From NCBI GenBank assembly GCA_028706715.1, contig JAQTVQ010000002.1:3510-67509 (forward strand): a stretch of 64,000 nt of DNA, written 5' to 3'. A model generated the notes under the pieces. The model saw only the letters and a program-made list of their open reading frames with translations, was not told the origin of the DNA and searched no databases. The position numbers and the translations under genes were made by a program. Shown here piece after piece: positions 18,278-53,427 of the stretch. Positions within the stretch are counted from its first letter, which is position 1. Each line of letters starts with the position of its first letter. This DNA comes from Minisyncoccota bacterium (lineage in GTDB: Bacteria; Patescibacteriota; Minisyncoccia; Minisyncoccales; JAQTVQ01).

Positions 18278-18367
18278 GCCGAATTAAAAATGCAAATATC
18301 AAAAATTAAAATGACAATGCAAAATGTTAAAATGATTGAAACGGAAATTTTATAATTTTACATTGTT

Positions 18368-18396: not shown

Positions 18397-18418
18397 TTTG
18401 ATTTTTAAGTTATTTACT

Positions 18419-19957: not shown

Positions 19958-19967
19958 TATTATTAAC

Positions 19968-20837: not shown

Positions 20838-20838
20838 T

Positions 20839-21638: not shown

Positions 21639-21711
21639 GCCCTCGTGGTGTAATGGATAACATGTCTGTCTTCGGAACAGAAGATTGCAGGTCCGACTCC
21701 TGCCGAGGGCA
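21639..21711 (+). tRNA. tRNA-Arg (anticodon TCG)
   Basis: Hand-folded. Acceptor GCCCTCG/CGAGGGC, anticodon stem TCTGT/ACAGA with loop CTTCGGA, T-stem GCAGG/CCTGC, discriminator A. Total 73 nt. Confidence 0.75.
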
Positions 21712-21816
21712 CGAAGAGAAAGCCACGTAAAAATCCGAAAGGATTTTGTATCGTGGCCGAGAGCGTGAAGAGAAAGAGAAAGTCTGCAAACCGCAAGCTA
21801 AGAAGCTATAAAGCAA

Positions 21817-22248
21817 ATGATATTGACTAAAAGTAAAAAAAGTTTCATTATCTTAGCAGGAGCCCTGTCTCTGTTTTTGTTTTTAGCGCCGAACGTATTG
21901 GCCGGAGGCCAAAACTGCCCGACCGAAGGGCTTGTTCCCTGCGGAACGGAAGGCTGTCCTTGCGAAATTTGCGATCTTTTCAAAATGATAAACGGGATTG
22001 TAAACTATATAATCACTGGCATAGTTCCTTTGATTGCCATATTGTTCGTGACTTACGGCGGATTTAAATATATTACCGCAGACGGCGATCCCGGAAAAAT
22101 AAAAGAAGCTAATGACGTTTTTACCGCCGCGATAATAGGATTGGTCATCATTTACGGCGCATGGATGGCCATAGGATTTGCTTTGAATTTAATCGGAGTC
22201 GCCGAGTGGACGGGACTGGGAAACTGGTACCAAATCAATTGCCCTTAA
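21817..22248 (+). CDS. Small secreted/membrane protein that resembles the T4SS-pilin (TrbC/VirB2-like) family reported in candidate phyla
   Basis: Signal peptide, a Cys-rich segment (CPTEGLVPCGTEGCPCEICD), then two hydrophobic helices (VPLIAILFVTYGGFKYITADGDPGKIKEAN ... IIGLVIIYGAWMAIG). Confidence 0.4.
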   Translation: MILTKSKKSFIILAGALSLFLFLAPNVLAGGQNCPTEGLVPCGTEGCPCEICDLFKMINGIVNYIITGIVPLIAILFVTYGGFKYITADGDPGKIKEANDVFTAAIIGLVIIYGAWMAIGFALNLIGVAEWTGLGNWYQINCP

Positions 22249-22255
22249 ATCCTTT

Positions 22256-22328
22256 GCCCTCATAGCTCAATTGGCAGAGCAGTTGCCTCTTAAGCAATTG
22301 GTTACAGGTTCAAGTCCTGTTGAGGGCA
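22256..22328 (+). tRNA. tRNA-Lys (anticodon CTT)
   Basis: Hand-folded. Acceptor GCCCTCA/TGAGGGC, anticodon loop CTCTTAA, T-arm ACAGG-TTCAAGT-CCTGT, discriminator A. Total 73 nt. Confidence 0.8.
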
Positions 22329-22329
22329 C

Positions 22330-29251: not shown

Positions 29252-30250
29252 CTATTTCTTAAAAGAGAGCAAGGCTCCAAGCCTGTATTTGGCAAGAGGA
29301 TTGGCAGTCCCGCGGACATCAAAATGCAAATGGCATCCGGTTACGCCGATTACTCTGCCCGTATTACCGATATAACCGATGAGCTGGCCCTGGGAAACGG
29401 TTTCGCCGGCGGAAACCAAGACTTTGGACAAATGGGCATAAATAGTAACGACCCCGTTGGGATGGAGAATATTGGTATAAATTCCCAAAGGCCACTGGTT
29501 GGCAGATATTTGCACTTTCCCTCCCGCAGAAGCAAAAACGGGAGTGCCGCACTGGTTTGCAATATCAACAGCATTGTAAAAATGAAGCCTTTGGCTGATC
29601 GTTCCCGTTGTCGGGATGATAAAATATCCTTCCGGCAAGACATTCCCGGCGCTTTGAGCCAAGATCGGAGTGCTGGCCGCGGTAGGAGAAGACACTTTCC
29701 CTCCGGGAACGATAATCATATCTCCAATAATCAATTTTGAGCCTTCTTCCATTTGATTAAAGGCTATAATTTGATCTTGCTGGGCTTTGTAAGTTTTAGC
29801 TATTCCAGAAACAGTATCTTTCTCTTTAACAATATGCATTACTCCGGAAACGGGAAGAATAATCAATTTTTGCCCGGCTTTGATAAATGAGCCCTTTTTT
29901 AAATTATTGGCCCAAAGGACAGTTTCCGTGCTGATTTTAAATTTCTCCGCAATTCCCGCTAAAGTGTCTCCTTCTTTTACGGTATATTGGATAATGTCTT
30001 TTTCTTCTTTTTCTGCTTGAGCTTCTTCCCCAAAATCAGATATGCTCGCCAGCGATTGAGGCTTCACAAAAACGGGAGAGGGCACTCCTTTGAGAATAGA
30101 CCTCTCTAGAATAGTTAAATTTTGGACAGAGTCAACTGTATTTTGAGCATTTAAGAGGACGCAAGAAGCCGATTTTTCTTCTCCGCCGCTTTCCGCGCAA
30201 TGATTCTTATTGTCGGCCGCTGCCAAGCTGAAAACGGCCAAAATCCCCAA
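29252..30250 (-). CDS. LysM-domain M23 family metallopeptidase
   Basis: Two LysM repeats (YTVKEGDTLAGIAEKF ..., HIVKEKDTVSGIAKTY) and the M23 motif GCHLHFDVR. Confidence 0.8.
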   Translation of the reverse strand: MGILAVFSLAAADNKNHCAESGGEEKSASCVLLNAQNTVDSVQNLTILERSILKGVPSPVFVKPQSLASISDFGEEAQAEKEEKDIIQYTVKEGDTLAGIAEKFKISTETVLWANNLKKGSFIKAGQKLIILPVSGVMHIVKEKDTVSGIAKTYKAQQDQIIAFNQMEEGSKLIIGDMIIVPGGKVSSPTAASTPILAQSAGNVLPEGYFIIPTTGTISQRLHFYNAVDIANQCGTPVFASAGGKVQISANQWPLGIYTNILHPNGVVTIYAHLSKVLVSAGETVSQGQLIGYIGNTGRVIGVTGCHLHFDVRGTANPLAKYRLGALLSFKK

Positions 30251-30371: not shown

Positions 30372-31211
30372 ATGTCAAGCCAATTATCCACAATTAAACA
30401 AACCAAGGATCTTTTGGAAAAATACGGCCTAAGCCCCAAAAAAAGCTTCGGGCAGAATTTCTTGGTAAGAAAAGAAGAAGTTAAAAACCTGATTAATGCC
30501 GGAGAAATAAAAAAAACCGACATTGTTTTGGAAATCGGTCCGGGCATCGGAATTTTGACCAAAGAGCTGGCTAAATCAGCCCGAAAAGTAATTGCCGTAG
30601 AGAAAGATTTCCAAATGGCTAAAATCCTTGAAGAAGAGCTTTCCCTCTTGAAGATCGGCAATGTAGAAATAGTCCGAAAAGATATTTTGGATTACTTGAA
30701 AGAAGACGGTTTAAAGCTAAAAGAATATAAAGCGGCGGGAAATATTCCTTTTTACCTGACGGCTCATTTGATCAGGCTTCTTTTAGAATCTCCCAATCCT
30801 CCAAAAAATATGGCTTTCGTCCTGCAAAAAGAAGTGGGACAGCGCATTGCCAGCCTTCCGCCAAAAATGAGCCTTCTTTCGGCTTCGGTCCAATTTTACG
30901 CCAGCCCCCGATTGTGCGGATATATTAAAAAATCTTCCTTTTGGCCCTCCCCAGCGGTTGATGCGGCAATTATTAAAATCTCCCCGAAGCCCCTTGATCC
31001 AAATGTAAATCGCGATCTTTTTTTTAAAATTTTAAAAGCCGGCTTTTCCCAGCCGCGGAAGCAAATCGCCAACAACTTATCAATTTCTTTAAAAGCTGAT
31101 AAAATAGAAATCAATAACTGGCTTTTAAAAAATAACATCCAGCCTTCCCAAAGAGCAGAAACATTATCAATAGGGGATTGGATAAATTTAACAAAAACTT
31201 TCAATGATTAA
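30372..31211 (+). CDS. rsmA: 16S rRNA (adenine1518/1519-N6)-dimethyltransferase
   Basis: KKSFGQNFLV...LEIGPGIGILT. Confidence 0.85.
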   Translation: MSSQLSTIKQTKDLLEKYGLSPKKSFGQNFLVRKEEVKNLINAGEIKKTDIVLEIGPGIGILTKELAKSARKVIAVEKDFQMAKILEEELSLLKIGNVEIVRKDILDYLKEDGLKLKEYKAAGNIPFYLTAHLIRLLLESPNPPKNMAFVLQKEVGQRIASLPPKMSLLSASVQFYASPRLCGYIKKSSFWPSPAVDAAIIKISPKPLDPNVNRDLFFKILKAGFSQPRKQIANNLSISLKADKIEINNWLLKNNIQPSQRAETLSIGDWINLTKTFND

Positions 31212-33381
31212 AAAAACGGACAAGATTCTCTTTTTCTCTGCCGTTGTTTTTATCTCTTTGTTTTTTTCCGCTTCTTTTTGCTCGGCGGCTTTTGATTTGG
31301 CCACTCCCATAATTATCGGTTTTTTGCAAATTGCCTGCCAAATTGTCCTTTTTTTGACTTCAGGGATTTTAGGCCTGGCTGGAGGCTTTTTAGAAATAAT
31401 GGCCAGCCCGCAGTTTATCGCCGCCAAATTCACCAGCAACGAATTTGTGGCGCTGGGAACGAATATCACGCTAGGGTTTGCCAATATCGTCATCCTTTTG
31501 TCTCTTTTGGCCATAGGAATCGGCACGGCTTTAAGGCTGGACAAGTTTGACGCCAGGAAAAATTTTTCCAGTTTATTGATCGTTATTTTCTTGATTAATT
31601 TTTTTGCTCCTCTTTTTTGCGGATTGATTATAGACGCTTCCAATATTGTAATGAATTTTTTTATCGGTAGCGGATTTTCAGCTTCCAAGGTTCTTTCAAA
31701 CGCCTTGGCCGCCCAAGGAAATAATCTAGCATCTCACGCCAACGGACTTGCCACGATAGTTGAGCTTTTGAATCTAAAATTTCTGATGCAGACTGTCATT
31801 ATGATTGTTTTTAACCTCTCTTTAGCTATTGTCCTCTTTCTTTTCGGCCTTCTTTTCGTTATGAGATACGCCGCGCTTTGGACACTGGTCATCCTTTCTC
31901 CTTTGGCTTTTTCTTGTTATATCCTCCCTTCCACTAGAAAGATATTCAACACTTGGATGAATCAATTCGTCAACTGGTGTTTTGTGGGAGCTATTGCTTC
32001 TTTCTTTCTTTATTTGGGCCAGCAATTAATAGGCCTTATCTCTCAAGGAAACTTGGTGCTGGTTCCTCCCGGCCAAAGCTCAAACTGGTATGGGATGGAG
32101 AGCGTAATGCCATACATAGTGGCAATTATCTTCTTATTCATAGGCTTCTTCTTCTCTCTAAGCTCAAGCGCCATGGGCTCGGGAGCCGTAATCGGATACG
32201 CGCAGGGACAAACTAAAAAACTCGGTAATTGGGGCGCGAGAAGATTTATCAAAGCTCCCGCTAAAGAAGGAGGAAAGGATGCGGTAAGATCAAGGGCGAC
32301 AGAAAAAGTCGCGAAAGGAATTTCCTCTCTCGGCTCAAGCCTTTCTCCTTCTTGGGGAGAAGGAGAAAAAGGAGTCAGCGGCTGGGCGAAAAGACAAGCC
32401 GCAAAAGGCTTGGGCGTTCCGGGAAGAGCTCTCGGAGGAGCGGGAGCGGCCTTGTCTATGGAAAGAGACAAGCAGATAGGAGAGATAACCAAAAAAGCCG
32501 AAGAGATGAAAACCAAAGAGCTGAAAGGAGCTTTAAAGGGAGGCTCTCTCGGAGAAAAAGGATCTTTAAAAAACGGCTTGATCGTGGCGTCTTTCCTTAC
32601 GGATAAAGACGAAGGAAAGAACAAAGAAGCAAGAGAGAAAATAAAAGTTATGAACAAGGGAGAGATTGAAGCTATGGTTAGGGCTCTTTTGAAAGAAGGA
32701 AAGAACAAAGAGGCTGACGCAATGGGAAGAATATCTCTTCTTATGAAAAAGACTAAAGATTTAAAAGAAATAGGATTTAAGGAATTAAGCCCCGAAGAAA
32801 GAGAAAAAAACAAAGAATGGAAAAATAAATGGAGCGGCCATGCCGACAGACTGATAGACACCGCCGACATTGATACTATTAAAAAATACGGCGGAGACAT
32901 TTCAGAGTCCGAAGAGATGATGGCCTCCGCCGCCAGGCTCTGGGGACAGGGGAAAGTTAAGGCTGCAGCGGAACAATTTGAAGACAAATTTATTAAAAAA
33001 TACTGCGAAGCGGCAGACAACATAGGCTTTAAAGAAATGCTGAAAGAAAATCCCGGAGCCGTAATGTTCAGGATAAGCAGCGCCGCGCAGGATGCCGGAT
33101 TTACCCCTCCTGTCAACAATGAAGGAAAATTGATTATGAAAAAAGAAGAAGTGCAAGCGATAAGAAGAGAGATCAAAACTCAAACAGGCTCTTTTGGATT
33201 GGCCGGACCGCACGGCGAGCCGATCAGCCAATTTAAAAAATTTCAAAGCTCGTTAAAAGACGCACAGAGAGACTTGGAAAAAGAAGTAAAAAAAACGGAA
33301 GAAAAAAAAGAAAGACGGAATCCTCCAAGAGGGACGGAAACCGGACCGAAAAGAAGCGACAAGCGGCCTCCGGGGACATAA
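31204..33381 (+). CDS. Large polytopic membrane protein with a ~400-aa charged/Gly-rich C-terminal tail; possibly VirB6/TrbL-like
   Basis: Signal peptide plus at least 6 TM helices in the first ~330 aa, then a hydrophilic K/E/G-rich tail. It sits in the T4SS-like cluster. Confidence 0.35.
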   Translation: MIKKTDKILFFSAVVFISLFFSASFCSAAFDLATPIIIGFLQIACQIVLFLTSGILGLAGGFLEIMASPQFIAAKFTSNEFVALGTNITLGFANIVILLSLLAIGIGTALRLDKFDARKNFSSLLIVIFLINFFAPLFCGLIIDASNIVMNFFIGSGFSASKVLSNALAAQGNNLASHANGLATIVELLNLKFLMQTVIMIVFNLSLAIVLFLFGLLFVMRYAALWTLVILSPLAFSCYILPSTRKIFNTWMNQFVNWCFVGAIASFFLYLGQQLIGLISQGNLVLVPPGQSSNWYGMESVMPYIVAIIFLFIGFFFSLSSSAMGSGAVIGYAQGQTKKLGNWGARRFIKAPAKEGGKDAVRSRATEKVAKGISSLGSSLSPSWGEGEKGVSGWAKRQAAKGLGVPGRALGGAGAALSMERDKQIGEITKKAEEMKTKELKGALKGGSLGEKGSLKNGLIVASFLTDKDEGKNKEAREKIKVMNKGEIEAMVRALLKEGKNKEADAMGRISLLMKKTKDLKEIGFKELSPEEREKNKEWKNKWSGHADRLIDTADIDTIKKYGGDISESEEMMASAARLWGQGKVKAAAEQFEDKFIKKYCEAADNIGFKEMLKENPGAVMFRISSAAQDAGFTPPVNNEGKLIMKKEEVQAIRREIKTQTGSFGLAGPHGEPISQFKKFQSSLKDAQRDLEKEVKKTEEKKERRNPPRGTETGPKRSDKRPPGT

Positions 33382-33415
33382 AAAAAGAAACTGAAAATTC
33401 AGTTTCTTTTTTGTT

Positions 33416-34384
33416 TTATTTGCTCTTTTTCTTTTCTGAAGCTGAAGACACCACTCTTTCAACCATTTGAGACAATCCCGGAACGACCGTCAAGCTGGCA
33501 GAAAGAGGACTTTTTTCCGCGGCCTCAAACATTCGGATAAACTTTCCGTCCTCTCCATGTTTCAGTATTGTATCATACACCTTCTCAATTCTTCCTGCTT
33601 CGGCTTCGGCCAATGCGGAAATGCCGGCGGCTTCATGTTCTTTGGTTCTTTTCGTTAATGTCACTTCCCGATATGAAGCCGGGGGATCAATTTCCTTTGA
33701 TTGCAGAGACTTGACGTCTACCCCATACTCCTTAAACTGCTCAAAAAATTTGCGCTGGGATAAAATTTCCATAAAGGTTTTGTCCAGCTCAAATTTTTTT
33801 TGATCATTTTCTCCTACCATCTCTTCATAGGAATATTCTCCTATGATGTCTTTAATCGCCGGGCCGGCTTTTACGATCGTTAATTCTAGGGAATTTTCTG
33901 CATTAAAGAGCCATTTGTAAACGTTTGACGGAGCGGCAGTCATTATCATTGTAAAATCCAAGGGGACTGAATTTTTATCTTCAGCCTCTTGGATCTTGAA
34001 AGCATAATAGTCGTCTTCAAGAAGGACATAGTCTTGCCATCTTTCTTCGTGAATTTCTATGTTCCCTTCATTGTCCAAAGTAGCCCATCTGAATTTATGG
34101 GCATATATTTTATCAAACGGATAAAATCCTACCCATCGCAAGCCTCCGAAGAAATCCCAAAAGCTTCTTTGTTCTCCTTCTACAACATTCCACTCCAAAT
34201 CAAAAGTTCTTCCTCTCCATGACATCAAGCACTTCTTAAACTTTTTTCCTCTGACGACCACTTTTGCCGTTCCTTCGTCAACAAAGGTAAAACAAATGTT
34301 ATTCGGCGCCAGATAGAACCAAATAAGACAGATAAAGAAAAAAAATATCGCAGCCAATAAGAGCAAAAATATTATTAAATCCAT
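33416..34384 (-). CDS. Membrane-anchored SPFH/band-7-like protein
   Basis: N-terminal TM helix, then a region that resembles SPFH (GVDVKSLQSKEIDPP ... AEAEAGRIEKV). Confidence 0.4.
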   Translation of the reverse strand: MDLIIFLLLLAAIFFFFICLIWFYLAPNNICFTFVDEGTAKVVVRGKKFKKCLMSWRGRTFDLEWNVVEGEQRSFWDFFGGLRWVGFYPFDKIYAHKFRWATLDNEGNIEIHEERWQDYVLLEDDYYAFKIQEAEDKNSVPLDFTMIMTAAPSNVYKWLFNAENSLELTIVKAGPAIKDIIGEYSYEEMVGENDQKKFELDKTFMEILSQRKFFEQFKEYGVDVKSLQSKEIDPPASYREVTLTKRTKEHEAAGISALAEAEAGRIEKVYDTILKHGEDGKFIRMFEAAEKSPLSASLTVVPGLSQMVERVVSSASEKKKSK

Positions 34385-34620
34385 ATTTTTCTTTTAAAAG
34401 ACCTTTTCAGCCCAGGCATAGCCCTCGGCTGGAAAAATAATCTTTTAAAGATTAATTACAGCCTTGGGTTGTCCAAGCTTTATTTCTTTTTTATAAAACA
34501 ATTTTGACATATTGTCAAATATTTTTTCCCGAAAAATTTATCGCGTCTTATTGCTTCTCTTTTTAGAACAGGGGAAAAGTTTGCTTTTGCCAAAAATTTT
34601 TTTATGTTAAAATATCTTAT

Positions 34621-35091
34621 ATGTTAAAAGAAATTTCCGAAAAGCAATTTTGGGAAACATACAAATCTCTGCCGGAAGAGCTTCAAGAAGCGATTTTTTC
34701 CGAAAAAACGGCTGAGATAATTTTTAATATATGTACGGATAACGAGATAGAAGACCTTCGTATTTCTAAAATTGCGAAATGCGTAGGAAGGACTCTTCTT
34801 GGCTTTCTCCCTCCGGAACAGCTGCAGCCCACTTTAGAATTGGATTTGGATATTGCTTCCAAGACGGCTGAAAATATCTGCCAAGCCATATACTCTTCAA
34901 TTTTAGAGCCGGTCAGAGCACAATTAACAAAACTGTATCTTACAAGCAATAAGAGAAAGGAATCTTCTTTGGAAGAAGGAGCTTCTTCGTCCGTTAAAAA
35001 ACAAACTGAAAAAAAAGAAGAAATTTCTCCGGCCGGCGGCGCCAAAGAAAAGGAAAAGTCTTTTGATTCTTACCGTGAATCCATAAATTAA
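34621..35091 (+). CDS. Acidic hypothetical protein
   Basis: ORF only; no motif recognised. Confidence 0.3.
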   Translation: MLKEISEKQFWETYKSLPEELQEAIFSEKTAEIIFNICTDNEIEDLRISKIAKCVGRTLLGFLPPEQLQPTLELDLDIASKTAENICQAIYSSILEPVRAQLTKLYLTSNKRKESSLEEGASSSVKKQTEKKEEISPAGGAKEKEKSFDSYRESIN

Positions 35092-35099
35092 ATTTACAA

Positions 35100-35516
35100 A
35101 TGCAATTTCAAGTTCCTCAATTCATTGAAAAAGAAACAGGTTTTTTAGGGCCTCTGACAATTCGGCAAACCGTTATTTTCTCCGTTGCGGCGGGAGCTGT
35201 TCTTTTTGCATGGATATTTTTCGGCAAATCCAATTTTATGATTTTTTTAATGCTTTCCGTCCTCTTTGTCTCCGGAGCCGCAGCTCTTTCTTTTTTAAAA
35301 GTAAACGGCCTTAACCTAACAATCGTCTTAAAAAACTTCCTGTCTTTTTTTTCAGCTTCCAAGCTTTATCTTTGGCAAAGAAAAGAAATCACCGTTTATT
35401 GCGAAAAAAAGGCTTCCGCCCCGTTGAAGAAAGAACCGGAAAAAGAATCTCCTTTAAAAATCAGCGGAGCAAGCAAAATAAAAGACTTAAATAAAAAAAT
35501 AGAATTTGGAGGATAG
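35100..35516 (+). CDS. PrgI/VirB3-like small membrane protein of the Gram-positive-type T4SS
   Basis: MQFQVPQFIEKETGFLGPLTIRQ followed by two TM helices. Positioned immediately upstream of VirB4. Confidence 0.45.
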   Translation: MQFQVPQFIEKETGFLGPLTIRQTVIFSVAAGAVLFAWIFFGKSNFMIFLMLSVLFVSGAAALSFLKVNGLNLTIVLKNFLSFFSASKLYLWQRKEITVYCEKKASAPLKKEPEKESPLKISGASKIKDLNKKIEFGG

Positions 35517-35519
35517 CTT

Positions 35520-36164
35520 ATGCCAAAATCGTCAACTCAACAATTTTTACCGATAGATCAAATCAGAGAGGGAGTGGCAGTAATGAAAGACAAGTCGCTA
35601 AGGGGAATTTTGCTTGTTTCTTCTTTAAATTTCGCTTTAAAATCAGACGAAGAGCAAACGGCTATAATTTATCAGTTCCAAGATTTTTTAAACTCTTTAG
35701 ACTTTTCCTGCCAAATATTGGCGCAGTCCAGGAAACTTAATATCACCGGGTATCTTGAAAAGCTTAAAGAAATTGAATCAAGGCAAGAAAACGACCTGTT
35801 AAAAACGCAGACCGTTGAATACAGAAAATTTATAGAAAAAATAATCAGCAGCGGATCAATTATGGCTAAAAACTTTTATGTGGTTGTGCCTTATTATCCT
35901 CTGATTGAAATACCGGGAGTGGCCGGAAACGCCGAAAAAAACGCCAAAGCGTCCAAAAAAGACTTAACCGAAGAAAAGTTCCAACGGGGGAAATACCAGC
36001 TTTGGCAAAGAATGGAATATGTCGTTCTAGGATTAAGGCGATGCGGCTTGAGAGCAAGCCCCTTAAGCACTCCCGAGATTATAGAAATTCTTTGGTCTTC
36101 CCATCATCCAAAAGAAGCGGAGTCGGGATACTATCCCGAACTGCCTCCTGAAATGCTGGTTTAA
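35520..36164 (+). CDS. VirB4/TrbE-family ATPase, N-terminal domain, encoded as a separate ORF
   Basis: QQFLPIDQIREGVAVMKDKSLRGILLVSSLNFALKSDEEQTAIIYQFQDFLNSLDF matches the VirB4 N-terminal region. The stop at 36162..36164 is followed 13 nt later by the ATG of the ATPase ORF, in another frame. Confidence 0.55.
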   Translation: MPKSSTQQFLPIDQIREGVAVMKDKSLRGILLVSSLNFALKSDEEQTAIIYQFQDFLNSLDFSCQILAQSRKLNITGYLEKLKEIESRQENDLLKTQTVEYRKFIEKIISSGSIMAKNFYVVVPYYPLIEIPGVAGNAEKNAKASKKDLTEEKFQRGKYQLWQRMEYVVLGLRRCGLRASPLSTPEIIEILWSSHHPKEAESGYYPELPPEMLV

Positions 36165-36177
36165 TTTTTACAAAACA

Positions 36178-37947
36178 ATGAACTTTTTTAAAAAAAACCA
36201 ACCGGAAAAACTCTTTGAAGCGGAGCATATGGACGCCAAAGATATAATCGCCCCCGCTTCCATAGAAATAAAACAAAACTCAATCAAGCTCGGCGAAAAA
36301 TTGGCCAAGACTTATTTTGTTTTTTCTTACCCGAGATATCTTACCACCGGATGGCTTTCTCCCATTATTAACTTGGACATACCTTTAGATATTTCTTTCT
36401 TCTTTCATCCCATGGAAACGGCGGACACTTTAAAAAAATTGAGACGAAAAGTTACCGAAATCCAAGTGGAAATAATCAGAAACGAAGAAAAGGGAAGAGT
36501 AAGAGACCCTTCTTTGGAAACAGCCTATAATGATTTGGAAAACTTGCGCGACAGTCTTCAGACCGCGCAAGAAAAAATGTTTAAATTCGGACTCTATATT
36601 ACCGTCTATGCCGACAGCGACTCCCAGCTTAACGATATTGAAACAACATTAAGATCTGTTTTAGAGTCGCGTCTAATATATTTGAAACCCGCCCTTTACC
36701 AGCAGAAAGAAGGCTTTCTTTCCGTTTCGCCTTACGCTATGGACAAGTTACAAGTCCATACAAGCATCAACACAGGGCCGCTATCTTCCGTTTTTCCTTT
36801 TGTTTCTTTTGACCTTAGCTCCAATGAAGGAATCTTATACGGGATGAACAAACACAACAGTTCTTTGGTCCTTTTTGACCGTTTTACTTTGGAGAACGCC
36901 AATATGGTAATTTTCGCCAAGTCCGGCTCCGGAAAATCTTATGCGGTCAAGCTTGAGATTTTAAGATCTCTAATGATGGGAGTGGAAGGCATTATTGTTG
37001 ATCCGGAAAACGAATATGAAATGCTGGCCGATGCCGTCGGAGGATCATTCTTCAAAATCTCTTTAAGCTCGGACAGCCACATCAACCCTTTTGATCTTCC
37101 CGTTCCCAGGGAAGATGAAGATCCCGAAGACGTTTTAAGGTCAAATATCATCAATTTGGTGGGATTGGTCAGGCTGATGCTTGGAGGATTAAATCCTGAA
37201 GAAGACGCAATCATTGATCGCGCCTTGGCCGAAACTTATGCCGCCAAAGATATCACTCCCGACTCCGATCCAAGCACATGGAAGGAAAAAACTCCCATTA
37301 TGTCGGATTTGGAATCGGTTTTGGAAACCATGGAAGGGGCAGATTCTCTTGTCCAAAGAATAAGAAAGTTCACTCAAGGAACTTTTGCCTCTTTTTTCAA
37401 CCAGCAATCAAACATTTCCATGGACAAATCTTTGGTCGTTTTCGGCATCAGAGACATGGAAGACGAATTAAGGCCGATGGCAATGTTTATTATTATGCGA
37501 TACATTTGGAATGAAATCAGGGCGGAGCTGAAAAAAAGGCTGCTGGTAATAGACGAAGCATGGTGGCTGATGCAGTCCGAAGACGGAGCTTCTTTTCTGT
37601 ACGGGATAGCAAAACGCGCGCGCAAATATTGGCTGGGAGTAACAACCATTACGCAGGACGTCTCCGATTTTATGAAATCTTCCTACGGCAAACCGATTAT
37701 TACCAACTCTTCTCTCCAAATACTCCTTAAGCAAAGCCCTGCCACCGTTGATATCCTGCAGCAAACATTCAACCTTACGGATCAAGAAAAATTCCTGCTT
37801 TTGGAGACGCCGGTGGGAGAGGGAATCTTTTTTGCCGGAATGAAGCATGTTTCCATTAAAATAGTCGCTTCTTATACTGAAGATCAAATCATCACTTCCA
37901 GTCCCGAACAGATATTAAAGATAAAAGAGGCTAAAAACAATCTTTAG
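36178..37947 (+). CDS. VirB4/TrbE/CagE-family T4SS ATPase (central and C-terminal ATPase part)
   Basis: Walker A VIFAKSGSGKSYAV, Walker B LLVIDEAWWL, and the family-typical region ...FVFSYPRYLTTGWLSPI. Confidence 0.75.
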   Translation: MNFFKKNQPEKLFEAEHMDAKDIIAPASIEIKQNSIKLGEKLAKTYFVFSYPRYLTTGWLSPIINLDIPLDISFFFHPMETADTLKKLRRKVTEIQVEIIRNEEKGRVRDPSLETAYNDLENLRDSLQTAQEKMFKFGLYITVYADSDSQLNDIETTLRSVLESRLIYLKPALYQQKEGFLSVSPYAMDKLQVHTSINTGPLSSVFPFVSFDLSSNEGILYGMNKHNSSLVLFDRFTLENANMVIFAKSGSGKSYAVKLEILRSLMMGVEGIIVDPENEYEMLADAVGGSFFKISLSSDSHINPFDLPVPREDEDPEDVLRSNIINLVGLVRLMLGGLNPEEDAIIDRALAETYAAKDITPDSDPSTWKEKTPIMSDLESVLETMEGADSLVQRIRKFTQGTFASFFNQQSNISMDKSLVVFGIRDMEDELRPMAMFIIMRYIWNEIRAELKKRLLVIDEAWWLMQSEDGASFLYGIAKRARKYWLGVTTITQDVSDFMKSSYGKPIITNSSLQILLKQSPATVDILQQTFNLTDQEKFLLLETPVGEGIFFAGMKHVSIKIVASYTEDQIITSSPEQILKIKEAKNNL

Positions 37948-37960
37948 TTTTTATTAAAAA

Positions 37961-38371
37961 ATGGCAGAAGAAATTAAAACAGAAGCGGAAGAAGGAAGCA
38001 AAGGAAATTTTCTAGCTTTTACGACTCCCGAAGGAATGGTAATGATGACTTCCGCGGTGATGGTGGATGTTTCGGGATTCTTTGGGTTTCCTTGGCTTTT
38101 TATTCCGGATCTATTTTTCGGATTTTGGCTGATGATGAGAGGAAGCGTAAAGTCTGCAGAGAATGGGCAAGAGCCAGTAAAAAAGCAAGAGAGAGGACAA
38201 GAGAAAAATAAAAAGCCTTCCGCTCCGCCGAAAGCGGGGAAAAGAGCAAAAAAAGTCAGACGGATTAAGTGGCTTAGGGTAGTTGTTTTTATCGGAGAGC
38301 TGATTCCCGTTATTAACATTTTGCCTCTTTGGATCATCCTTGTTTTTTCAGAATTGTTTTATAACAGCTAA
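37961..38371 (+). CDS. Small membrane protein with a basic linker
   Basis: Two hydrophobic segments separated by a K/R/E-rich stretch. Confidence 0.3.
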   Translation: MAEEIKTEAEEGSKGNFLAFTTPEGMVMMTSAVMVDVSGFFGFPWLFIPDLFFGFWLMMRGSVKSAENGQEPVKKQERGQEKNKKPSAPPKAGKRAKKVRRIKWLRVVVFIGELIPVINILPLWIILVFSELFYNS

Positions 38372-38374
38372 AAA

Positions 38375-40033
38375 ATGAAAAGAATCAAAAAATCTTTAAA
38401 GGTTTTCTTTATCTCCTGCTTTTTTGCCGGCTTTTTATTTTTTTATGTCGCCAACGCCAACGACCTTGAAATATCTTATCCTCCCATGCCGCAAGTGGAA
38501 GCTCCGACAACGACCGAAAGCAGCTTGGAAAATTATATAAAATATTTTTTTAATTTCGCCTTCTCTGCGGCAGGACTCGTCTTGCTTGCCGCTCTTATCC
38601 AAGGAGGCCTTTCTTATCTTTCTTCGGCTGGGAACGCCGCCAAAACAAAACTGGCAAAAGAAAGGATCGTCTCCGGATTTTTGGGAGTAGCCGTTATTCT
38701 TTGTTCTTGGCTCCTTTTGTATGCGCTAAACCCGCGAATAGCCTTTTTTTCTTTTGATAAAGCCCCTGTTTCCGTTTCAATTACAGTGCCTCCGGAAGAA
38801 AAAACGGACAGCAAAAGAACTTTCTTGCAAATACCTCTCGGCGTTTTAGTTGAAAAAGCTTTAACGGGCAACGAAGCCCAAATTAAACTTGACAGCGTAA
38901 AAGGACAAAATGAAGAACTGAAAGAAAAAGCAAAAAAGCTCAAAGAGCTGAATGAAGAACTGAAAGACCTCGCTCTTTCTTGCGACTGCGGCAATTCCAC
39001 CTGCGGAAGCACAGCCGATAACTGCAAAGGAAGCGGATATGGATGCCAAATTAGCTGCGACCAAAACGCGATTAACGCAAAGATAGATGAAATAAATGTA
39101 TTTATAGAAAATCTCAAATCCTTCCAAAAAGATTACTTTGTCTCTACCAGGTGGGATTTTGATGACGGCAGAAACGAATTAAAAATAGCCGCTTCTCTCT
39201 TAACGGGCGCCTGCGACTCTCCCGTAATGACTCAAAACGATATGATGGAAGCCTCTGCGATGATAGGCCGGGACGGCCTTGAGATTAAAACTTTGAGCGG
39301 ATGGCCAAGCAATAAAATCGTCTTTGACGGAAAGACAATAGACGATCCCATTACCTTCTACTGCGAGCATCCGGATATTGACAGCGCGCTGGGGTCAACC
39401 GCTTTTGAAGACATACTTGAAATAGTCGCCATAGAAGATTATCCGGACATCGCAAGCGATCAAGCTCCGGGAAACGCCGCTCCTCCCGCAGGGAGCCAAG
39501 ATTACAGAATAAGAGACAACCAAAATAATTATCCTTATCTAAGCCAAGGAGATTCCAAAACACAATGCATTAGGTGGGTAGGATGCGGACCGACTTCTTT
39601 GGCTACCGTAATAAGATACTTCGATCCTTCAGCAACGACAACGGCAGAAAGCTTGGCAAGAGAGTTTGAATCACAGGGAAGCTTCTATTATTGTTCCTGT
39701 CTAAGTAAATCATGCTCGGGAGGAATAACCTCCGCGGCTTCCGCCTCCAGCTATGTCAGCTCAAAATACAACATCCAGTATGAAAGGCTGGCAAGAGATC
39801 CGCAAACCGTAAAAAACGAGATATTAAAAAATCGGCCGGTATTAATCGCCAGCTGCGTTTTTGGCCCTTACGCCAAATATGGAGGACATCTTTTGGTAAT
39901 TAATGGAGTAAATTATACCGGAGAGACGATAAATTATTTTTACGTTATGGATCCGTGCCACTATAACTACACCACCATCAGCTTGAAAGACCTTAGCAAG
40001 TGCGGAGCTTATATTTACAGTTTTTCTAAATAA
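38375..40033 (+). CDS. Secreted/membrane protein: T4SS-pilin-like N-terminal domain fused to a C-terminal C39-like (papain-fold) cysteine peptidase domain
   Basis: The N-terminal module (signal peptide, then SYPPMP..., TM helix, SSAGNAAKTKLAKERIVSGFLGVAVILCSWLLLYALNP) is paralogous to the N-domain of 40893..42254. The C-terminus carries the C39 catalytic signatures CGPTSLATVIRYF ... NRPVLIAS ... GGHLLVINGV...YFYVMDP. Confidence 0.5.
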   Translation: MKRIKKSLKVFFISCFFAGFLFFYVANANDLEISYPPMPQVEAPTTTESSLENYIKYFFNFAFSAAGLVLLAALIQGGLSYLSSAGNAAKTKLAKERIVSGFLGVAVILCSWLLLYALNPRIAFFSFDKAPVSVSITVPPEEKTDSKRTFLQIPLGVLVEKALTGNEAQIKLDSVKGQNEELKEKAKKLKELNEELKDLALSCDCGNSTCGSTADNCKGSGYGCQISCDQNAINAKIDEINVFIENLKSFQKDYFVSTRWDFDDGRNELKIAASLLTGACDSPVMTQNDMMEASAMIGRDGLEIKTLSGWPSNKIVFDGKTIDDPITFYCEHPDIDSALGSTAFEDILEIVAIEDYPDIASDQAPGNAAPPAGSQDYRIRDNQNNYPYLSQGDSKTQCIRWVGCGPTSLATVIRYFDPSATTTAESLAREFESQGSFYYCSCLSKSCSGGITSAASASSYVSSKYNIQYERLARDPQTVKNEILKNRPVLIASCVFGPYAKYGGHLLVINGVNYTGETINYFYVMDPCHYNYTTISLKDLSKCGAYIYSFSK

Positions 40034-40036
40034 AAT

Positions 40037-40870
40037 ATGAAAAGAGCAACAAAAATATTTTTTATTTTCGCAACGATCTCCGTTTTTTCTTTAACCGCTA
40101 ATCTTTTTTTGCACAAAGCAAAAGCGGAAGAGAACACAAGTAGCGAGCCTCTTTCCTGCAACCAGGAAATACCGATAGGGGAGATAATAGAAGAGACGGT
40201 CGGCTTTATGGGAGGAGTAAGAAGCGACGCAATAGGCCTGCAATCTTTGTTAAAACAAGAGATTTCGGCTTCCCAAGAATTAATCTTGTCTGTGCAGTCT
40301 TGCGACATCGGCAATTGCTCTCCCTCGTGCGATCTCAAAAGTTATTCCGTATCAGACGGACAAGGAGGAGCGCAAGTTTTCTCTTACTGTGAAGCCAATA
40401 ACTGCAACGGACAAATTTGCCCTGAAAGCAAAATATCCTCCGATTTTGCCAAAGTAAAATCTATTTATGAAGAAATTGAACAAGCCCAAGAATCGGCAGA
40501 AAAAGCTATTACAAAAAAAGATTTTTCTTTTTCAATAAAGCCCTATGTCAACCCTCTTCTTCCTTTTCCCGTAGGACTTTATCCAGAAATAACGAATAAG
40601 ACAAAATCTGAAGCAATCCAAGCAAAGCTTGACGCATCTAGAGGCCTTTTTGACTCCTGCTTCTCAACCCCCCAAGAATGGCAAGAAGTTCTAGAAGGGA
40701 AAAAAATCGGCAAGGTTCTTCTTTCTTGCAGAGAGAGTCTTGATTTTGCAAAAGACGACTTGAGCCAAGAATGCAAAGACTCCTGCCTAAACGATCCTAA
40801 AGGAGAAAAATGTACCGAATGCTTGGGATGCAAAAGCGCCGGCAATTTTTTCTGCTGCACTACAAAATAA
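40037..40870 (+). CDS. Secreted Cys-rich protein of unknown function
   Basis: Signal peptide and ~20 cysteines including CCTTK at the C-terminus. Same operon as the pilin-like genes. Confidence 0.35.
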   Translation: MKRATKIFFIFATISVFSLTANLFLHKAKAEENTSSEPLSCNQEIPIGEIIEETVGFMGGVRSDAIGLQSLLKQEISASQELILSVQSCDIGNCSPSCDLKSYSVSDGQGGAQVFSYCEANNCNGQICPESKISSDFAKVKSIYEEIEQAQESAEKAITKKDFSFSIKPYVNPLLPFPVGLYPEITNKTKSEAIQAKLDASRGLFDSCFSTPQEWQEVLEGKKIGKVLLSCRESLDFAKDDLSQECKDSCLNDPKGEKCTECLGCKSAGNFFCCTTK

Positions 40871-40892
40871 GAAATTAAGAAATAAACGATAT

Positions 40893-42254
40893 ATGAAAAA
40901 AATAAAACAACCGTCGGCCGTATTAACATTTTTGGTTTTGATGGGGCTGTCCTCGGCCGGAATCTGCTCCGCGGCGCTTGAATTGGCGTATCCTCCTTTG
41001 GGAAGCATCCAGCTTCCTGCCAACCCGTCTTTGGTGGAATATCTAAGGTATATCTTCGCTTTTACGGTGTTGGTATCCGGCATTATCGCTTTTGGGATGA
41101 CTGTTTCCAGCGGTATCAAGTGGCTGACTTCCGCCGGGAACGTAAGCAAAACATCAGCGGCAAAAGAAGAAATGTTTTCTTCTTTTTTGGGTATTGTTAT
41201 CGTCCTTTGCTCTTGGCTGGTTCTAAACACAATAAACCCGCAGTTGACCGCTTTCAATATTTCTCCCATACAAAAAGAAGGAGTTACCGTGACTCTGGCC
41301 AATGCCAATCCAAACGACAACCTAAGAACATACGCATCTTCTGTCAGCAAGCTAGAAGAAATCAGCCATATTGATTTTGATAAAACAAAAATAGACGTTT
41401 ACTTTTATCCCGAAGAAAACTGGAAAGAAACAAGCTCTAAAAAGACCAAGGCGTTGCCGGGAGACGTAAAAGACAGCCCAAAATCAATGGAAATAGTATG
41501 GAAAACCCCGGGAGTTCAGCTTTGTTACGTCCAAGACGGAAAAGACATTTGCGATTCCTATAACTACAACACTCCCGGCTTCGGAGAAAACGACAACAAA
41601 TACACAAAAATAAAAATTATTGATGAAAGAGGCCAAGGTGGAGATGTTGTTGTAAAATATATAGCTATCGTCTTTGAAGAAGACAATTATAAGGTGGGAG
41701 GACTGGAAATATACAAGTCGCCGGACTCTTCCGGCCAATCAGGCTCCGCATGGCCCCCGCCGCAACAACAGCAAAGCACCGCATATACCAGTCCTTTGCA
41801 GTATCCGACGACACAGCAGGGTTTTAGCAGCGCCGCGACACTAGATCTGACAGCCTATGAAGAGGACATAGACAACGGATGGGCTTCTTCAATAAAAATA
41901 TATACTTATAAGCCCAATGGAGACAATAATGGAAGAGTTGACTTGTATTCCGCCATAGAGTTCGGAGGAGAAAGCTGGGGGACAGACAGCGAAGCAACGG
42001 TAAACTTGCAGTCCGTTAATTCTTCTTTAAGCCAAAACGTTTGGTCCGTCAGTATCTCGGGGAACAGAGTTGTTGTTTTTTGCGAAAATGAAAACTGCGG
42101 AGACACAAAAAATAACAAGTGCCAAATTATTGAAGCTACCGACGCCAACTTAAATGACCAATGGATAGGGAGGTGCCAATCTCATTGGTATAACATTTGG
42201 CAAAAAAACGAACCGTGTATGAAATGCGCGGACATTAGAATCTTCAACAAATAA
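40893..42254 (+). CDS. Secreted/membrane protein: T4SS-pilin-like N-terminal domain plus a large Cys-containing ectodomain
   Basis: LAYPPLGS..., TM helix, TSAGNVSKTSAAKEEMFSSFLGIVIVLCSWLVLNTINP is paralogous to 38375..40033. A Gln-rich linker (PPPQQQQS) follows. Confidence 0.45.
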   Translation: MKKIKQPSAVLTFLVLMGLSSAGICSAALELAYPPLGSIQLPANPSLVEYLRYIFAFTVLVSGIIAFGMTVSSGIKWLTSAGNVSKTSAAKEEMFSSFLGIVIVLCSWLVLNTINPQLTAFNISPIQKEGVTVTLANANPNDNLRTYASSVSKLEEISHIDFDKTKIDVYFYPEENWKETSSKKTKALPGDVKDSPKSMEIVWKTPGVQLCYVQDGKDICDSYNYNTPGFGENDNKYTKIKIIDERGQGGDVVVKYIAIVFEEDNYKVGGLEIYKSPDSSGQSGSAWPPPQQQQSTAYTSPLQYPTTQQGFSSAATLDLTAYEEDIDNGWASSIKIYTYKPNGDNNGRVDLYSAIEFGGESWGTDSEATVNLQSVNSSLSQNVWSVSISGNRVVVFCENENCGDTKNNKCQIIEATDANLNDQWIGRCQSHWYNIWQKNEPCMKCADIRIFNK

Positions 42255-42261
42255 GAAAAAC

Positions 42262-42292
42262 AAAAACGGACCTTTTAAGGTCCGTTTTTTTA
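42262..42292. terminator. Bidirectional intrinsic terminator between the pilin-like operon (+) and jag (-)
   Basis: ACGGACC-TTTTAA-GGTCCGT hairpin, flanked by an A-run upstream and a T-run downstream. Confidence 0.7.
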
Positions 42293-53254: not shown

Positions 53255-53427
53255 TTTGAATTATGTTATTTTTAGGAAACTGAAACAACTTCCAGACTGG
53301 GGGTAGGGGTTTCTTCTGATTTGGACAATCTGGATTCGTCTGGGCTGATCCTCAAAGAAATTCTGCGCCTAAGTAAGCCTATACTTAAGTCCCCCAGTCC
53401 GGGGGTTGTTTTTTTTGCTTTAAAATC

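Follow-up and report, generated by a model that had tools for sequence, protein, structure and literature searches.

A probable origin-proximal type IV secretion system with pilin-module fusion proteins in a Paceibacteria-class patescibacterium

Analysis of a 64,000-nucleotide stretch of DNA (the window) revealed an operon of eight genes with intergenic gaps of 3–22 nt, in the order DxYREPIE protein, PrgI/VirB3, TrsD, VirB4, small membrane protein, pilin–C39 peptidase fusion, Cys-rich exported protein and second pilin fusion, preceded by a VirB6-like gene and an SPFH gene within the region 31204–42254 (Table 1). The locus is flanked by rsmA on one side and by jag-yidC-rnpA-dnaA-dnaN on the other, and the VirB6-like gene, which overlaps the end of rsmA by 8 nt, is probably co-transcribed with it. 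All ORFs listed for this region by a first-pass annotation, which had proposed a Gram-positive-type T4SS-like cluster, were present at the positions given; however, the list omitted the first ORF of the operon and missed a standalone pilin gene farther upstream. The public MAG GCA_028709945.1 contains the same DNA.

Table 1 Features of the secretion locus and its surroundings, with positions in the window.
Feature	Position	Strand	Evidence or note
Standalone VirB2/TrbC-like pilin, 143 aa	21817..22248	+	HMM from fusion-type pilin modules, E 8.9e-14
LysM + M23 peptidoglycan endopeptidase	29252..30250	-	Pfam Peptidase_M23 E 2.8e-25, LysM E 3.9e-22
Extended VirB6-like polytopic membrane protein, 725 aa	31204..33381	+	Weak TrbL profile and family-level evidence
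Hairpin, 14-bp stem	33381..33412	.	Between convergent VirB6-like and SPFH genes; likely terminator
SPFH/Band-7 protein, one N-terminal TM helix (3–21)	33416..34384	-	Pfam Band_7 E 2e-8, above cut-off
156-aa cytoplasmic protein, first gene of operon	34621..35091	+	Position and C-terminal motif
PrgI/VirB3-like small membrane protein	35100..35516	+	Pfam PrgI E 3.7e-8, 34.2 bits (threshold 27)
TrsD-like protein, equivalent of VirB4 N-terminal region, separate 214-aa ORF	35520..36164	+	NCBIfam
VirB4 ATPase, middle and C-terminal P-loop domains, 589 aa	36178..37947	+	NCBIfam CD1110, Pfam, PDB
Small membrane protein, 136 aa, basic central loop	37961..38371	+	Hydrophobic segments
Pilin-module fusion 1, 552 aa	38375..40033	+	Pfam T4SS_pilin and Peptidase_C39_2
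Exported Cys-rich protein, 277 aa, 16 Cys	40037..40870	+	Signal peptide and Cys count
Pilin-module fusion 2, 453 aa	40893..42254	+	Pfam T4SS_pilin E 1e-7
Bidirectional hairpin, 12-bp stem	42262..42289	.	Between last pilin-fusion gene and convergent jag; likely operon terminator

We compared the locus with related loci in 80 MAGs of Paceibacterota, Nealsonbacteria, Staskawiczbacteria and relatives, in which VirB4 identity ranged from 60 to 89%. The synteny rsmA / locus / jag-yidC-rnpA-dnaA-dnaN was common to the 80 genomes, and the order common to the related loci was rsmA, VirB6-like gene, (SPFH), gene for the 156-aa protein, prgI, trsD, virB4, variable pilin fusions and jag-yidC-rnpA-dnaA-dnaN; the locus occupies a fixed core-genome site. 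Its surface parts diverge fast: in the closest relative (L001), VirB4 and DnaA were 89% and 86% identical, respectively, but the three exported proteins only 33–38%.

The VirB6-like protein contains about eight hydrophobic segments in residues 1–320 and, after them, a charged tail of 405 aa that has a single Cys. This topology agrees with the first-pass call of a VirB6-like protein with a charged tail, but the single sequence stayed below the threshold of Pfam TrbL/VirB6 (E 5.6e-3, 16.9 bits; threshold 25.9). TrbL was reached by 3 of 51 relatives (best 7e-6) and TrbL_4 by two, and a profile built from the 51 relatives had TrwI, the VirB6 of R388, as its best PDB match (E 1.6e-3 over 186 residues). 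The VirB6 identity is thus tentatively suggested at the level of the family rather than by the single sequence; homologues were found in 52 of the 80 related loci. The PrgI/VirB3-like protein, present in 67 of the 80, exceeds its Pfam threshold, which confirms the earlier call, and has a hydrophobic hairpin (residues 19–66). The SPFH protein, also confirmed on the opposite strand, possibly serves as a membrane scaffold for the machine; of the 49 related loci that have both a VirB6-like gene and prgI, 20 carry the SPFH gene between these two on the minus strand. Neither a VirB8-like nor a VirB1-like protein could be identified. The LysM + M23 gene had a tblastn match in 28 of 80 related loci, adjoining rsmA in those listed, and its product matched DipM/MepM-like NCBIfam models below cut-off. 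This conserved neighbour could be a VirB1-like wall-remodelling helper or, equally, a housekeeping division enzyme; VirB1-type matches with M23/LysM domains were noted in a survey of Patescibacteria T4SSs (PMC12102498).

In the 156-aa protein, about 105 aa form an all-helical domain, which is followed by a low-complexity linker and, at the C terminus, by the conserved peptide D-x-Y-R/K-E-P-I/L-E (alignment A3), which reads DxYREPIE at this locus. It had no match in Pfam, NCBIfam or PDB, and its AF2 model, confident for residues 1–110, resembled no known fold in PDB or BFVD. In 45 of 61 loci, the gene immediately before prgI encodes a member of this family, and in 43 of the 45 the C terminus of that member has the Y[RKLQ]E core of the motif. 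At E<=1e-3 and 50% identity, the family amounts to 5151 clusters. We propose that this protein is an adaptor docking on the ATPase.

Of the 752 positions in the CD1110 VirB4 model of NCBIfam, the TrsD-like ORF aligns to 2–117 and the ATPase ORF to 180–733 (the latter with E 1.7e-112, 377 bits; cut-off 325). The former also matched VirB4_plasma (E 1.5e-9) and the TrsD/TraD family (E 4.4e-4) in NCBIfam, with a precomputed Pfam match to PF26593 (TraC-like); the latter matched P-loop_TraG, AAA_10 and CagE_TrbE_VirB in Pfam and the VirB4 C-terminal domain in PDB (4ag5; E 2.8e-42). The VirB4 ATPase has no Cys, and its Walker A (AKSGSGKS, 247–254) and Walker B (LLVIDE, 455–460) motifs are intact.

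The first-pass annotation had placed a small TM protein and three secreted proteins, two sharing a pilin-like module, after VirB4, and these descriptions hold. The 136-aa membrane protein, without a family match in Pfam or NCBIfam, has a hydrophobic segment at 108–126 in the scan and a second, Phe-rich stretch at about 25–60 as read from the sequence; homologues directly follow virB4 in 11 of 12 tblastn-positive loci. Fusion 1 is composed of a signal peptide, a VirB2-like two-helix module (T4SS_pilin at residues 49–118, 29.4 bits; threshold 26.6), a coiled-coil and Cys-knot stalk, a Pro-rich linker and a C39-like cysteine peptidase domain (residues 385–527, E 1.9e-13), with 18 Cys in total. 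This architecture recurs in seven database homologues. The peptidase triad (C404, H505, D526) is intact; among homologues, Cys and His occur in every covering row of the alignment and Asp in all but one, and the domain has a weak PDB match to a cysteine IgM protease (E 0.013). Fusion 2, identical to a protein named 'pilin' by NCBI, combines a signal peptide, a VirB2-like module (residues 47–114, 32.3 bits) and a beta-rich Cys-containing C-terminal domain; its AF2 model was poor (pLDDT 43.8), with moderate confidence for the helical hairpin only. Over 123 residues, the two modules share 35% identity (E 1e-24). The loop between the helices is basic, the C-terminal extensions contain 10–18 Cys, and the C-terminal domains are predicted to lie outside the cell. 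The 277-aa Cys-rich protein between them had no family match in Pfam or NCBIfam; homologues occurred in only 5–6 loci, in the three closest of which the gene lies between two pilin-module genes.

The standalone pilin exceeds the Pfam T4SS_pilin threshold (E 4.7e-10, 39.8 bits; threshold 26.6) and matches TrbC (E 1.2e-4). It has a signal peptide, a Cys-rich N-terminus and two TM helices, and its gene sits between tRNA-Arg (21639–21712) and tRNA-Lys (22256–22329). From there, the VirB6-like gene is 9 kb downstream and the operon 12 kb away. Family membership makes it a candidate for the major pilin of the system and is what would link it to the cluster. Fusion to a pilin module is the rule in this clade, since 101 of 102 module-bearing ORFs carry extensions of 200–2000 aa, a mixture of hydrolase and adhesin-like domains. 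These extensions, the normal signal peptide on each fusion, and the signatures LE..YP and TINP.L, which occur in fusion-type modules but are absent from the standalone pilin, would also fit a two-helix module that acts as a membrane anchor or cleavable leader for Sec-exported enzymes and adhesins, with the fusions building no T4SS pilus; a 330–430-aa extension on a VirB2-like subunit may moreover be sterically incompatible with packing. We regard this possibility as real but doubtful, given that the modules exceed the T4SS_pilin threshold, that, of the 99 module-bearing ORFs in related loci, about three quarters closely follow virB4 and the others are found a few kb upstream, and that short pilins of the same family at the same locus are essential in Southlakia (PMC10633639).

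PrgI, the two-ORF VirB4, the VirB6-like protein and the pilin-module fusions together support assignment to the Gram-positive-type (MPF-FATA-like) T4SSs, and identity to patescibacterial homologues would place VirB4 in the Patescibacteria clade. The region is, with good confidence, a chromosomal, origin-proximal T4SS of a Paceibacteria-class (Nealsonbacteria/Minisyncoccales-like) patescibacterium, belonging to a clade that is specific to Patescibacteria and descends from the MPF-FATA conjugation machines of monoderms. The locus corresponds to the MPF-FATA-like T4SS that Quinonero-Coronel 2025 describes for the Patescibacteria clade, and shares the gene set, the lack of a relaxase and the dnaA/ksgA/rnpA neighbourhood with the Paceibacteria T4SS of PMC12102498; the comparison with CPR loci called for earlier thus gave a direct match to published systems (PMC12102498, PMC10633639, PMC12857230). 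It is a typical chromosomal copy of the T4SS carried by ultrasmall Patescibacteria (CPR) beside the replication origin, which is probably used for host-cell interaction and not for plasmid transfer. The locus type is already known (described 2023–2025), and some details given here are absent from the literature consulted on it.

In such a machine, the VirB6-like protein, PrgI and TrsD/VirB4 would form the cytoplasmic-membrane translocon, and, by analogy with Gram-negative systems, VirB4 would pull VirB2-like pilins from the membrane and polymerise a tube. The standalone pilin could provide the bulk subunit, with the fusion proteins as minor subunits or membrane-anchored neighbours presenting enzymes and adhesins at the contact site, where the C39-like peptidase may cut wall or surface-layer peptides. 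The role of the machine would be host-cell contact and macromolecule transfer, with DNA or RNA import, effector export and adhesion as candidate functions. The leading idea in the literature is import of host nucleic acid or other material, not conjugation. Southlakia epibionticum cannot grow as an epibiont without its T4SS and the pilins of that system (PMC10633639; Wang 2023), and a cultured member of the phylum shows tubular connections to its host and host-RNA feeding (bioRxiv 10.64898/2026.06.21.733656).

An alternative is a competence T4SS like Helicobacter ComB or archaeal Ced, taking up environmental or host DNA for recombination or nucleotides. comM/yifB (27717–29246) lies 2 kb upstream and was found in 19 related loci, and PMC12102498, which proposes that DNA or other macromolecules are imported, notes that comF, recG and radA adjoin the T4SS in class ABY1. 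However, the VirB4 match to CedB was weak (E 1.7e-14, 53 bits; cut-off 700) compared with the 377 bits for the conjugative CD1110 model, and the cluster is without ComEC or DprA. According to the summary of the Wang 2023 work in PMC12857230, comEC deletion in Southlakia abolished competence and left viability unaffected, whereas the T4SS is essential; the essential role in Southlakia is therefore not classical transformation. A competence T4SS is an improbable reading of the present locus.

Across the 64 kb, Pfam and NCBIfam searches covering almost every ORF of 100 aa or more detected no relaxase, VirD4-type coupling protein, VirB11 or integrase, in line with the first-pass annotation, which had read a non-conjugative role from the missing VirD4, relaxase and VirB11. 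The sole T2SSE-family ATPase (53428–54732) was rejected as VirB11, scoring E 1e-131 as GspE/PilB-type against E 5e-16 as VirB11. The missing VirD4 is itself weak evidence for that role: the rest of the genome could hold VirD4 and a relaxase, and most Patescibacteria genomes carry VirD4-like genes, usually far from virB4 (PMC12102498). A stronger argument is the fixed core site beside dnaA in dozens of species without mobile-element marks, and the non-conjugative role is supported by agreement with PMC12102498, PMC10633639 and PMC12857230. A conjugative element (ICE or integrated plasmid) with relaxase and coupling protein outside the window would account for a VirB4 that passes the cut-off of an NCBIfam conjugal-transfer family, for closest non-patescibacterial systems that are conjugative, and for the restriction-modification pair and AbiEii toxin gene at the left end of the window. 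It is nevertheless very unlikely, as the rsmA / jag-yidC-rnpA-dnaA position is kept in dozens of species-level genomes, the window shows no integrase, bounding direct repeats or compositional break, and relaxases occur in only 103 of 3,035 genomes, only 15 of them near virB4 (PMC12102498).

That the two VirB4 ORFs, in different frames with 13 nt between them, reflect a frameshift, assembly error or pseudogene in a decaying system is refuted by the related loci, since TrsD and VirB4 were separate in 76 of 76, with the break at one common position, each of the three relative frames represented and no case of fusion; independent assemblies also give identical gene calls, and both parts are well conserved (TrsD 83% identical to the closest relative, alongside its VirB4). 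The split reported earlier is thus general to these loci and not peculiar to this one. By sequence, it is the known TrsD + VirB4 pair, in which stand-alone TrsD is a family of its own in NCBIfam and in PMC12102498, where this arrangement is the most abundant T4SS component of the phylum.

ORF listing and profile searches recovered the genes that the first-pass annotation had placed at 31204-42254 as a Gram-positive-type T4SS-like cluster, and its PrgI call scored above the Pfam cut-off. A 236-bp gap separates the SPFH gene from eight plus-strand genes spaced by just 3-22 nt. Core genes flank the locus on both sides: those for PNPase, a DksA-like protein, ComM/YifB, a LysM-M23 endopeptidase and rsmA on the 5' side, and jag/khpB, yidC, rnpA, rpmH, dnaA, dnaN and a class A PBP gene on the 3' side, where rnpA, dnaA and dnaN lie 1.2-3.6 kb from the operon.

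Features of the locus and of the surrounding window, with coordinates, strand and supporting matches
Feature	Coordinates	Strand	Remarks
N6 DNA methylase with R.Pab1-type restriction endonuclease; AbiEii toxin-like nucleotidyltransferase	1305-4395		left end of window
Lipid-gene run	5895-21498
Region tightly bracketed by tRNA-Arg(TCG) and tRNA-Lys(CTT)	21639-22329		holds standalone pilin gene
Standalone pilin, 143 aa	21817-22248		VirB2/TrbC-like; T4SS_pilin 39.8 bits vs cut-off 26.6
PNPase	23298-25442		6 kb 5' of T4SS
Glu/Lys-rich coiled-coil-like protein, 572 aa	25462-27180		one Cys; between PNPase and DksA-like gene
rsmA/ksgA	30372-31211	+	overlaps VirB6-like gene start by 8 nt
VirB6-like polytopic protein, 725 aa	31204-33381	+	~8 hydrophobic segments, 405-aa charged tail, single Cys
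Hairpin	33381-33412		between VirB6-like gene and convergent SPFH gene
SPFH/Band-7 protein	33416-34384	-	Band_7 E 2e-8, 34.9 bits vs cut-off 23.6; TM helix 3-21
Soluble protein, 156 aa	34621-35091	+	operon gene 1
PrgI/VirB3-like	35100-35516	+	operon gene 2; Pfam PrgI 34.2 bits vs cut-off 27
TrsD-like, 214 aa	35520-36164	+	operon gene 3
VirB4, 589 aa	36178-37947	+	operon gene 4
Membrane protein, 136 aa	37961-38371	+	operon gene 5
Fusion 1, 552 aa	38375-40033	+	operon gene 6; T4SS_pilin module and Peptidase_C39_2
Exported protein, 277 aa	40037-40870	+	operon gene 7; 16 Cys
Fusion 2, 453 aa	40893-42254	+	operon gene 8; T4SS_pilin module
Bidirectional hairpin, 12-bp stem	42262-42289		closes eight-gene unit
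Lamin-tail-domain protein	51531-52271
GspE/PilB-type ATPase	53428-54732	-	T2SSE family
ORF, 367 aa	54817-55920		no family match

With one genome per species, at least 552 VirB4 relatives were confirmed among the 600 pattern matches listed. The best 80 of these came from MAGs labelled Paceibacterota, Nealsonbacteria, Staskawiczbacteria, Minisyncoccales and similar, and their loci revealed a recurrent order of rsmA, VirB6-like gene, (SPFH), 156-aa gene, prgI, trsD, virB4, a variable block and jag-yidC-rnpA-dnaA-dnaN, the flanking core genes being shared by dozens of species. The DNA of the window itself was present, identical, in public assemblies including GCA_028709945.1 (contig JAQUTC010000007.1).

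The variable block holds genes with a VirB2-like pilin module. PF18895 modules above the cut-off were found in two genes within 3 kb 3' of virB4 (fusions 1 and 2, the latter already named 'pilin' by NCBI), and an HMM of these two modules revealed the standalone gene 5' of the cluster. The same HMM detected 102 module-bearing ORFs in 53 sources (the window and 52 related loci among the best 80 of at least 552), one to four per locus and mostly directly 3' of virB4; 101 of the 102 encode 200-2100 aa, the sole exception being the 143-aa pilin. Fusion of the pilin module to other sequence is thus the rule in the clade of related loci. Modules of the fusion type share a mature N-terminus LE..YP and, where the second helix ends, TINP.L (85-94% conserved), and the standalone pilin, which is likely the bulk subunit, carries neither. 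All three modules of the window gave weak matches to the Mbov_0395 pilin-like family (E 1.6e-6 to 2e-3, below equivalog cut-offs). In one sub-branch (related loci L003-L013, L018, L019 and L029), jag stands directly 3' of virB4 and the pilin-module genes occupy the opposite strand, 5' of the VirB6-like gene, indicating that the variable pilin block moved within the locus. Searches of the pilin genes for shufflon or phase-variation repeats returned just purine-rich low-complexity matches.

The basic inter-helix loop and the Cys-rich extensions predict a topology in which the extensions should face outward. A Pfam scan of 96 extensions gave few matches: three to a C39-like peptidase, two to LTD, and one apiece to M23, InlB B-repeat, SpaA-like and Ig-like domains. 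In fusion 1 the Peptidase C39-like domain (PF13529, clan CA) scored 51.6 bits against a cut-off of 24, and the predicted catalytic triad is in place as C404 (in GCGPTS), H505 and D526; the first two are invariant in all homologue rows covering them, and a single row lacks D526. Sequence searches of the PDB with the two fusion proteins yielded nothing useful, and the profile of fusion 1 found just a weak cysteine-protease match there. The AF2 model of fusion 2 was poor (pLDDT 43.8), and alignments for structure prediction were shallow, since word-index homologue searches gave only 7-8 matches each. A likeness of the Cys-rich 277-aa protein to the fusion 1 stalk was not significant.

The first gene of the operon encodes a protein whose family comprises 5151 clusters at 50% identity (E<=1e-3). 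A seven-helix domain was modelled with confidence (pLDDT ~90, residues 1-110) and had no match in Pfam, PDB or BFVD; in the family alignment a low-complexity linker of variable length comes next, and then a near-invariant C-terminal D-x-Y-R/K-E-P-I/L-E. Among the best 80 of at least 552 relatives, a member of this DxYREPIE-tailed family was located 5' of prgI in 45 of 61 loci, with a median gap of 5 nt, and 43 of those 45 had the Y[RKLQ]E core of the motif. In 20 of 49 loci of the same set, the SPFH gene, whose product combines the Band_7 domain with an N-terminal membrane anchor as in the SPFH/Band-7 family, separates the VirB6-like gene from prgI and lies on the other strand. A term search of the available main text of a phylum survey (Quinonero-Coronel 2025; PMC12102498) returned neither the SPFH gene nor pilin fusions, and no description of the DxYREPIE-tailed protein was found in that text.

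The VirB6 call of the first-pass annotation draws its support from the family profile, topology and position, and not from the single sequence, which fell below the Pfam cut-off (TrbL, E 5.6e-3). Among the best 80 of at least 552 relatives, 3 of 51 reached TrbL (best 7e-6) and 2 of 51 reached TrbL_4, and a profile of the 51 N-terminal regions had its best match in the whole PDB in TrwI, the VirB6 of plasmid R388 (E 1.6e-3, 186 residues). Family profile, topology and position together make the call reasonable but not strong. One VirB6-like tail (related locus L041) terminates with GYREPAEP, resembling the DxYREPIE motif.

Characterised T4SSs suggest, by analogy, a membrane translocon made of the VirB6-like protein, PrgI and TrsD/VirB4, in which VirB4 would power pilin extraction and polymerisation. 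The short pilin would build the tube, with the fusions as minor subunits or anchored neighbours that deliver a peptidase and binding domains to where the cells meet; the SPFH protein may be an assembly scaffold and the DxYREPIE protein an ATPase-docking factor. Such a machine would most likely serve contact with the host and the transfer of macromolecules, and the literature favours import of host material. A bolder and rather unlikely extension is that, in this branch of Patescibacteria, the VirB2-like module has become a portable N-terminal tag loading enzymes and adhesins onto or beside a conjugation-type pilus of a monoderm cell, which would thus be armed to cut the host envelope, with TINP.L possibly as a processing site and the DxYREPIE protein as a TrsD/VirB4-docking adaptor replacing the coupling protein. 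The cargo seen includes C39-like and M23 peptidases, LTD, Ig-like domains and many domains without a family match. If the fusions truly enter the pilus, they would represent a new way to arm a conjugation-type filament; that they are mere surface anchors with no pilus role is a possible, if somewhat doubtful, alternative.

A system dedicated to DNA uptake appears improbable. Matches to the DNA-import models stayed far below their cut-offs (CedB, 53 bits vs 700; CedD, 25 bits vs 600), and CedA and ComB partner families gave no matches. In Southlakia epibionticum, Tn-seq showed that epibiotic growth requires the T4SS genes and the pilin array (Wang 2023; PMC10633639), and a 2025 review summarising this work (PMC12857230) states that comEC deletion ended competence with viability unaffected.

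A conjugative element is very improbable. Profile scans of ORFs across the 64 kb bore out the reported lack of relaxase, VirD4 and VirB11, an absence that for VirD4 says little about the whole genome. Neither an integrase in the 64 kb (Pfam scans) nor bounding repeats or a GC/compositional break around the cluster were found, and this, together with the fixed core synteny, led to the rejection of an ICE or integrated plasmid. The non-conjugative reading put forward in the first-pass annotation agrees with the field. The one VirB11 candidate, the sole T2SSE-family ATPase in the 64 kb, proved to be of GspE/PilB type. With the neighbouring 367-aa ORF and Lamin-tail-domain protein (51531-55920), it is probably part of a type IV pilus or T2SS-like set apart from the T4SS; LTD is the C-terminal domain in two pilin-module fusions of relatives too.

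Decay of the system, as a frameshifted or pseudogenised virB4 might suggest, can be dismissed, since TrsD and VirB4 were separate ORFs in all 76 related loci with both parts (among the best 80 of at least 552), in all three possible relative frames and never fused. The 214-aa ORF aligned to positions 2-117 of the NCBIfam CD1110 VirB4 model (length 752) and the 589-aa ORF to positions 180-733 (E 1.7e-112, 377 bits vs curated cut-off 325); covering successive stretches of one model, they are collinear pieces of one VirB4-like sequence. The TrsD-like ORF, which ends 13 nt 5' of virB4, also matched the TrsD/TraD family below its cut-off (E 4.4e-4, 20 bits vs 200). Against the Mbov_0397 model, the TrsD ORF and VirB4 gave E-values of 1.5e-9 and 2.4e-85, both below equivalog cut-offs. 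VirB4 has kept Walker A AKSGSGKS (247-254) and Walker B LLVIDE (455-460), and matched the solved VirB4 C-terminal domain 4ag5 (E 2.8e-42). The constant separation and the varying frame indicated that the split noted in the first-pass annotation is ancestral and functional rather than a sequencing artefact.

Comparison with plasmid systems revealed shared parts in different settings. As in pGO1/pSK41 Trs and pIP501 Tra (the MPF-FATA subclass with TrsC, TrsD and TrsE), a separate TrsD/TraD, a homologue of the VirB4 N-terminus, lies 5' of the VirB4-like ATPase, and a VirB3-like small membrane protein occurs in a monoderm system without an outer-membrane core; in contrast to the window, those systems are plasmid-borne and conjugative, with relaxase, coupling protein and VirB1-like hydrolase, and lack a VirB2-like pilin. 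Enterococcus pCF10 Prg/Pcf (PrgH, PrgI, PrgJ, PrgK) shares the PrgI family and, in one operon, a VirB4-type ATPase with a polytopic VirB6-like protein (a tentative call in the window), but its PrgJ is a single VirB4 protein, adhesion proceeds via PrgB without a pilin, and the plasmid encodes relaxase PcfG and coupling protein PcfC. The Mycoplasma ICE T4SS (Mbov_0395, Mbov_0397) is likewise monoderm with a pilin-like component, but conjugative and on a mobile ICE. Agrobacterium VirB and R388 Trw share the VirB2-like pilin fold family and VirB3-like and VirB4 proteins; unlike them, the window has no recognised VirB7/9/10 outer-membrane core, VirB5, VirB8, VirB11 or VirD4, and its pilin modules bear long C-terminal extensions.

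The closest counterpart is patescibacterial. Southlakia epibionticum ML1 (SEML1_0006-0019) also has a TrsD-like ORF adjoining VirB4, a PrgI-family protein, large VirB6-like proteins, PF18895 pilins in the locus and wall-degrading enzymes just 3' of virB4, on the chromosome and without relaxase or coupling protein in the locus. Its six pilins, however, are short (~100-190 aa) and its lysozyme/peptidase genes encode separate proteins, whereas large exported proteins of the window and of related Minisyncoccales-like genomes begin with the pilin module, and the window has just one short pilin, 9 kb 5' of the VirB6-like gene. The available text of the phylum survey, covering 3,035 patescibacterial genomes, describes a VirB4 clade that is monophyletic and falls within the monoderm MPF-FATA class. 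Of the components that accompany it, TrsD is the most abundant; PrgI/VirB3, VirB6 and PF18895 VirB2-like pilins, frequently arrayed, are also listed. Relaxases are nearly absent, VirD4-like genes are common but mostly far from virB4, and Paceibacteria T4SS lie close to dnaA, dnaN, rnpA and ksgA (PMC12102498). TrsD next to virB4, PrgI, PF18895 pilins, the dnaA/ksgA site and the lack of a relaxase in the 64 kb match this text, and clade membership is provisional, judged from VirB4 identity (60-89% to the best 80 of at least 552 relatives; best curated model, monoderm CD1110) rather than from phylogeny. The locus is a standard member of the described Patescibacteria T4SS and no new kind of system.

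Comparison with L001, the closest locus among the matches listed, revealed 89%, 86% and 83% identity for VirB4, DnaA and TrsD, 59% for PrgI, 40% for the 156-aa protein and 33-38% for the three exported proteins. Judged from these identities, the surface parts evolve far faster than the motor, as expected of host-facing components. The Patescibacteria T4SS is one of few machines on which epibiotic life in a very large, mostly uncultured bacterial group is known to depend, and the 2025 review describes patescibacterial systems as the first T4SSs of monoderms that probably build a pilus (PMC12857230). The locus provides a compact, complete Paceibacteria-side example, and its details with testable value are the pilin fusions, a cytoplasmic partner that is very common, unannotated and tailed by a peptide motif, and the recurrent SPFH neighbour; the pilin-fusion architecture and the DxYREPIE family are most worth follow-up.

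Elsewhere in the window, the PNPase gene has counterparts within 10 kb of virB4 in 6 of the best 80 loci. A 2026 preprint describes a cultured phylum member that has tubular host connections and feeds on host RNA, and ties PNPase and VirB4 to this feeding. The 572-aa protein had no family match, and its region exhibited strong AT skew (0.3-0.4). The lipid-gene run encodes a FakA-DegV fusion, thiolase-like protein, FabG-like reductase, FabA-like hotdog fused to NMO/FabK-like, second NMO, PlsC, biotin carboxylase, BCCP, biotin ligase, carboxyltransferase, DegV and PlsY, a kind of gene set generally reported lacking in CPR, for both fatty-acid synthesis (PMC10633639) and phospholipid synthesis (OT8 preprint).
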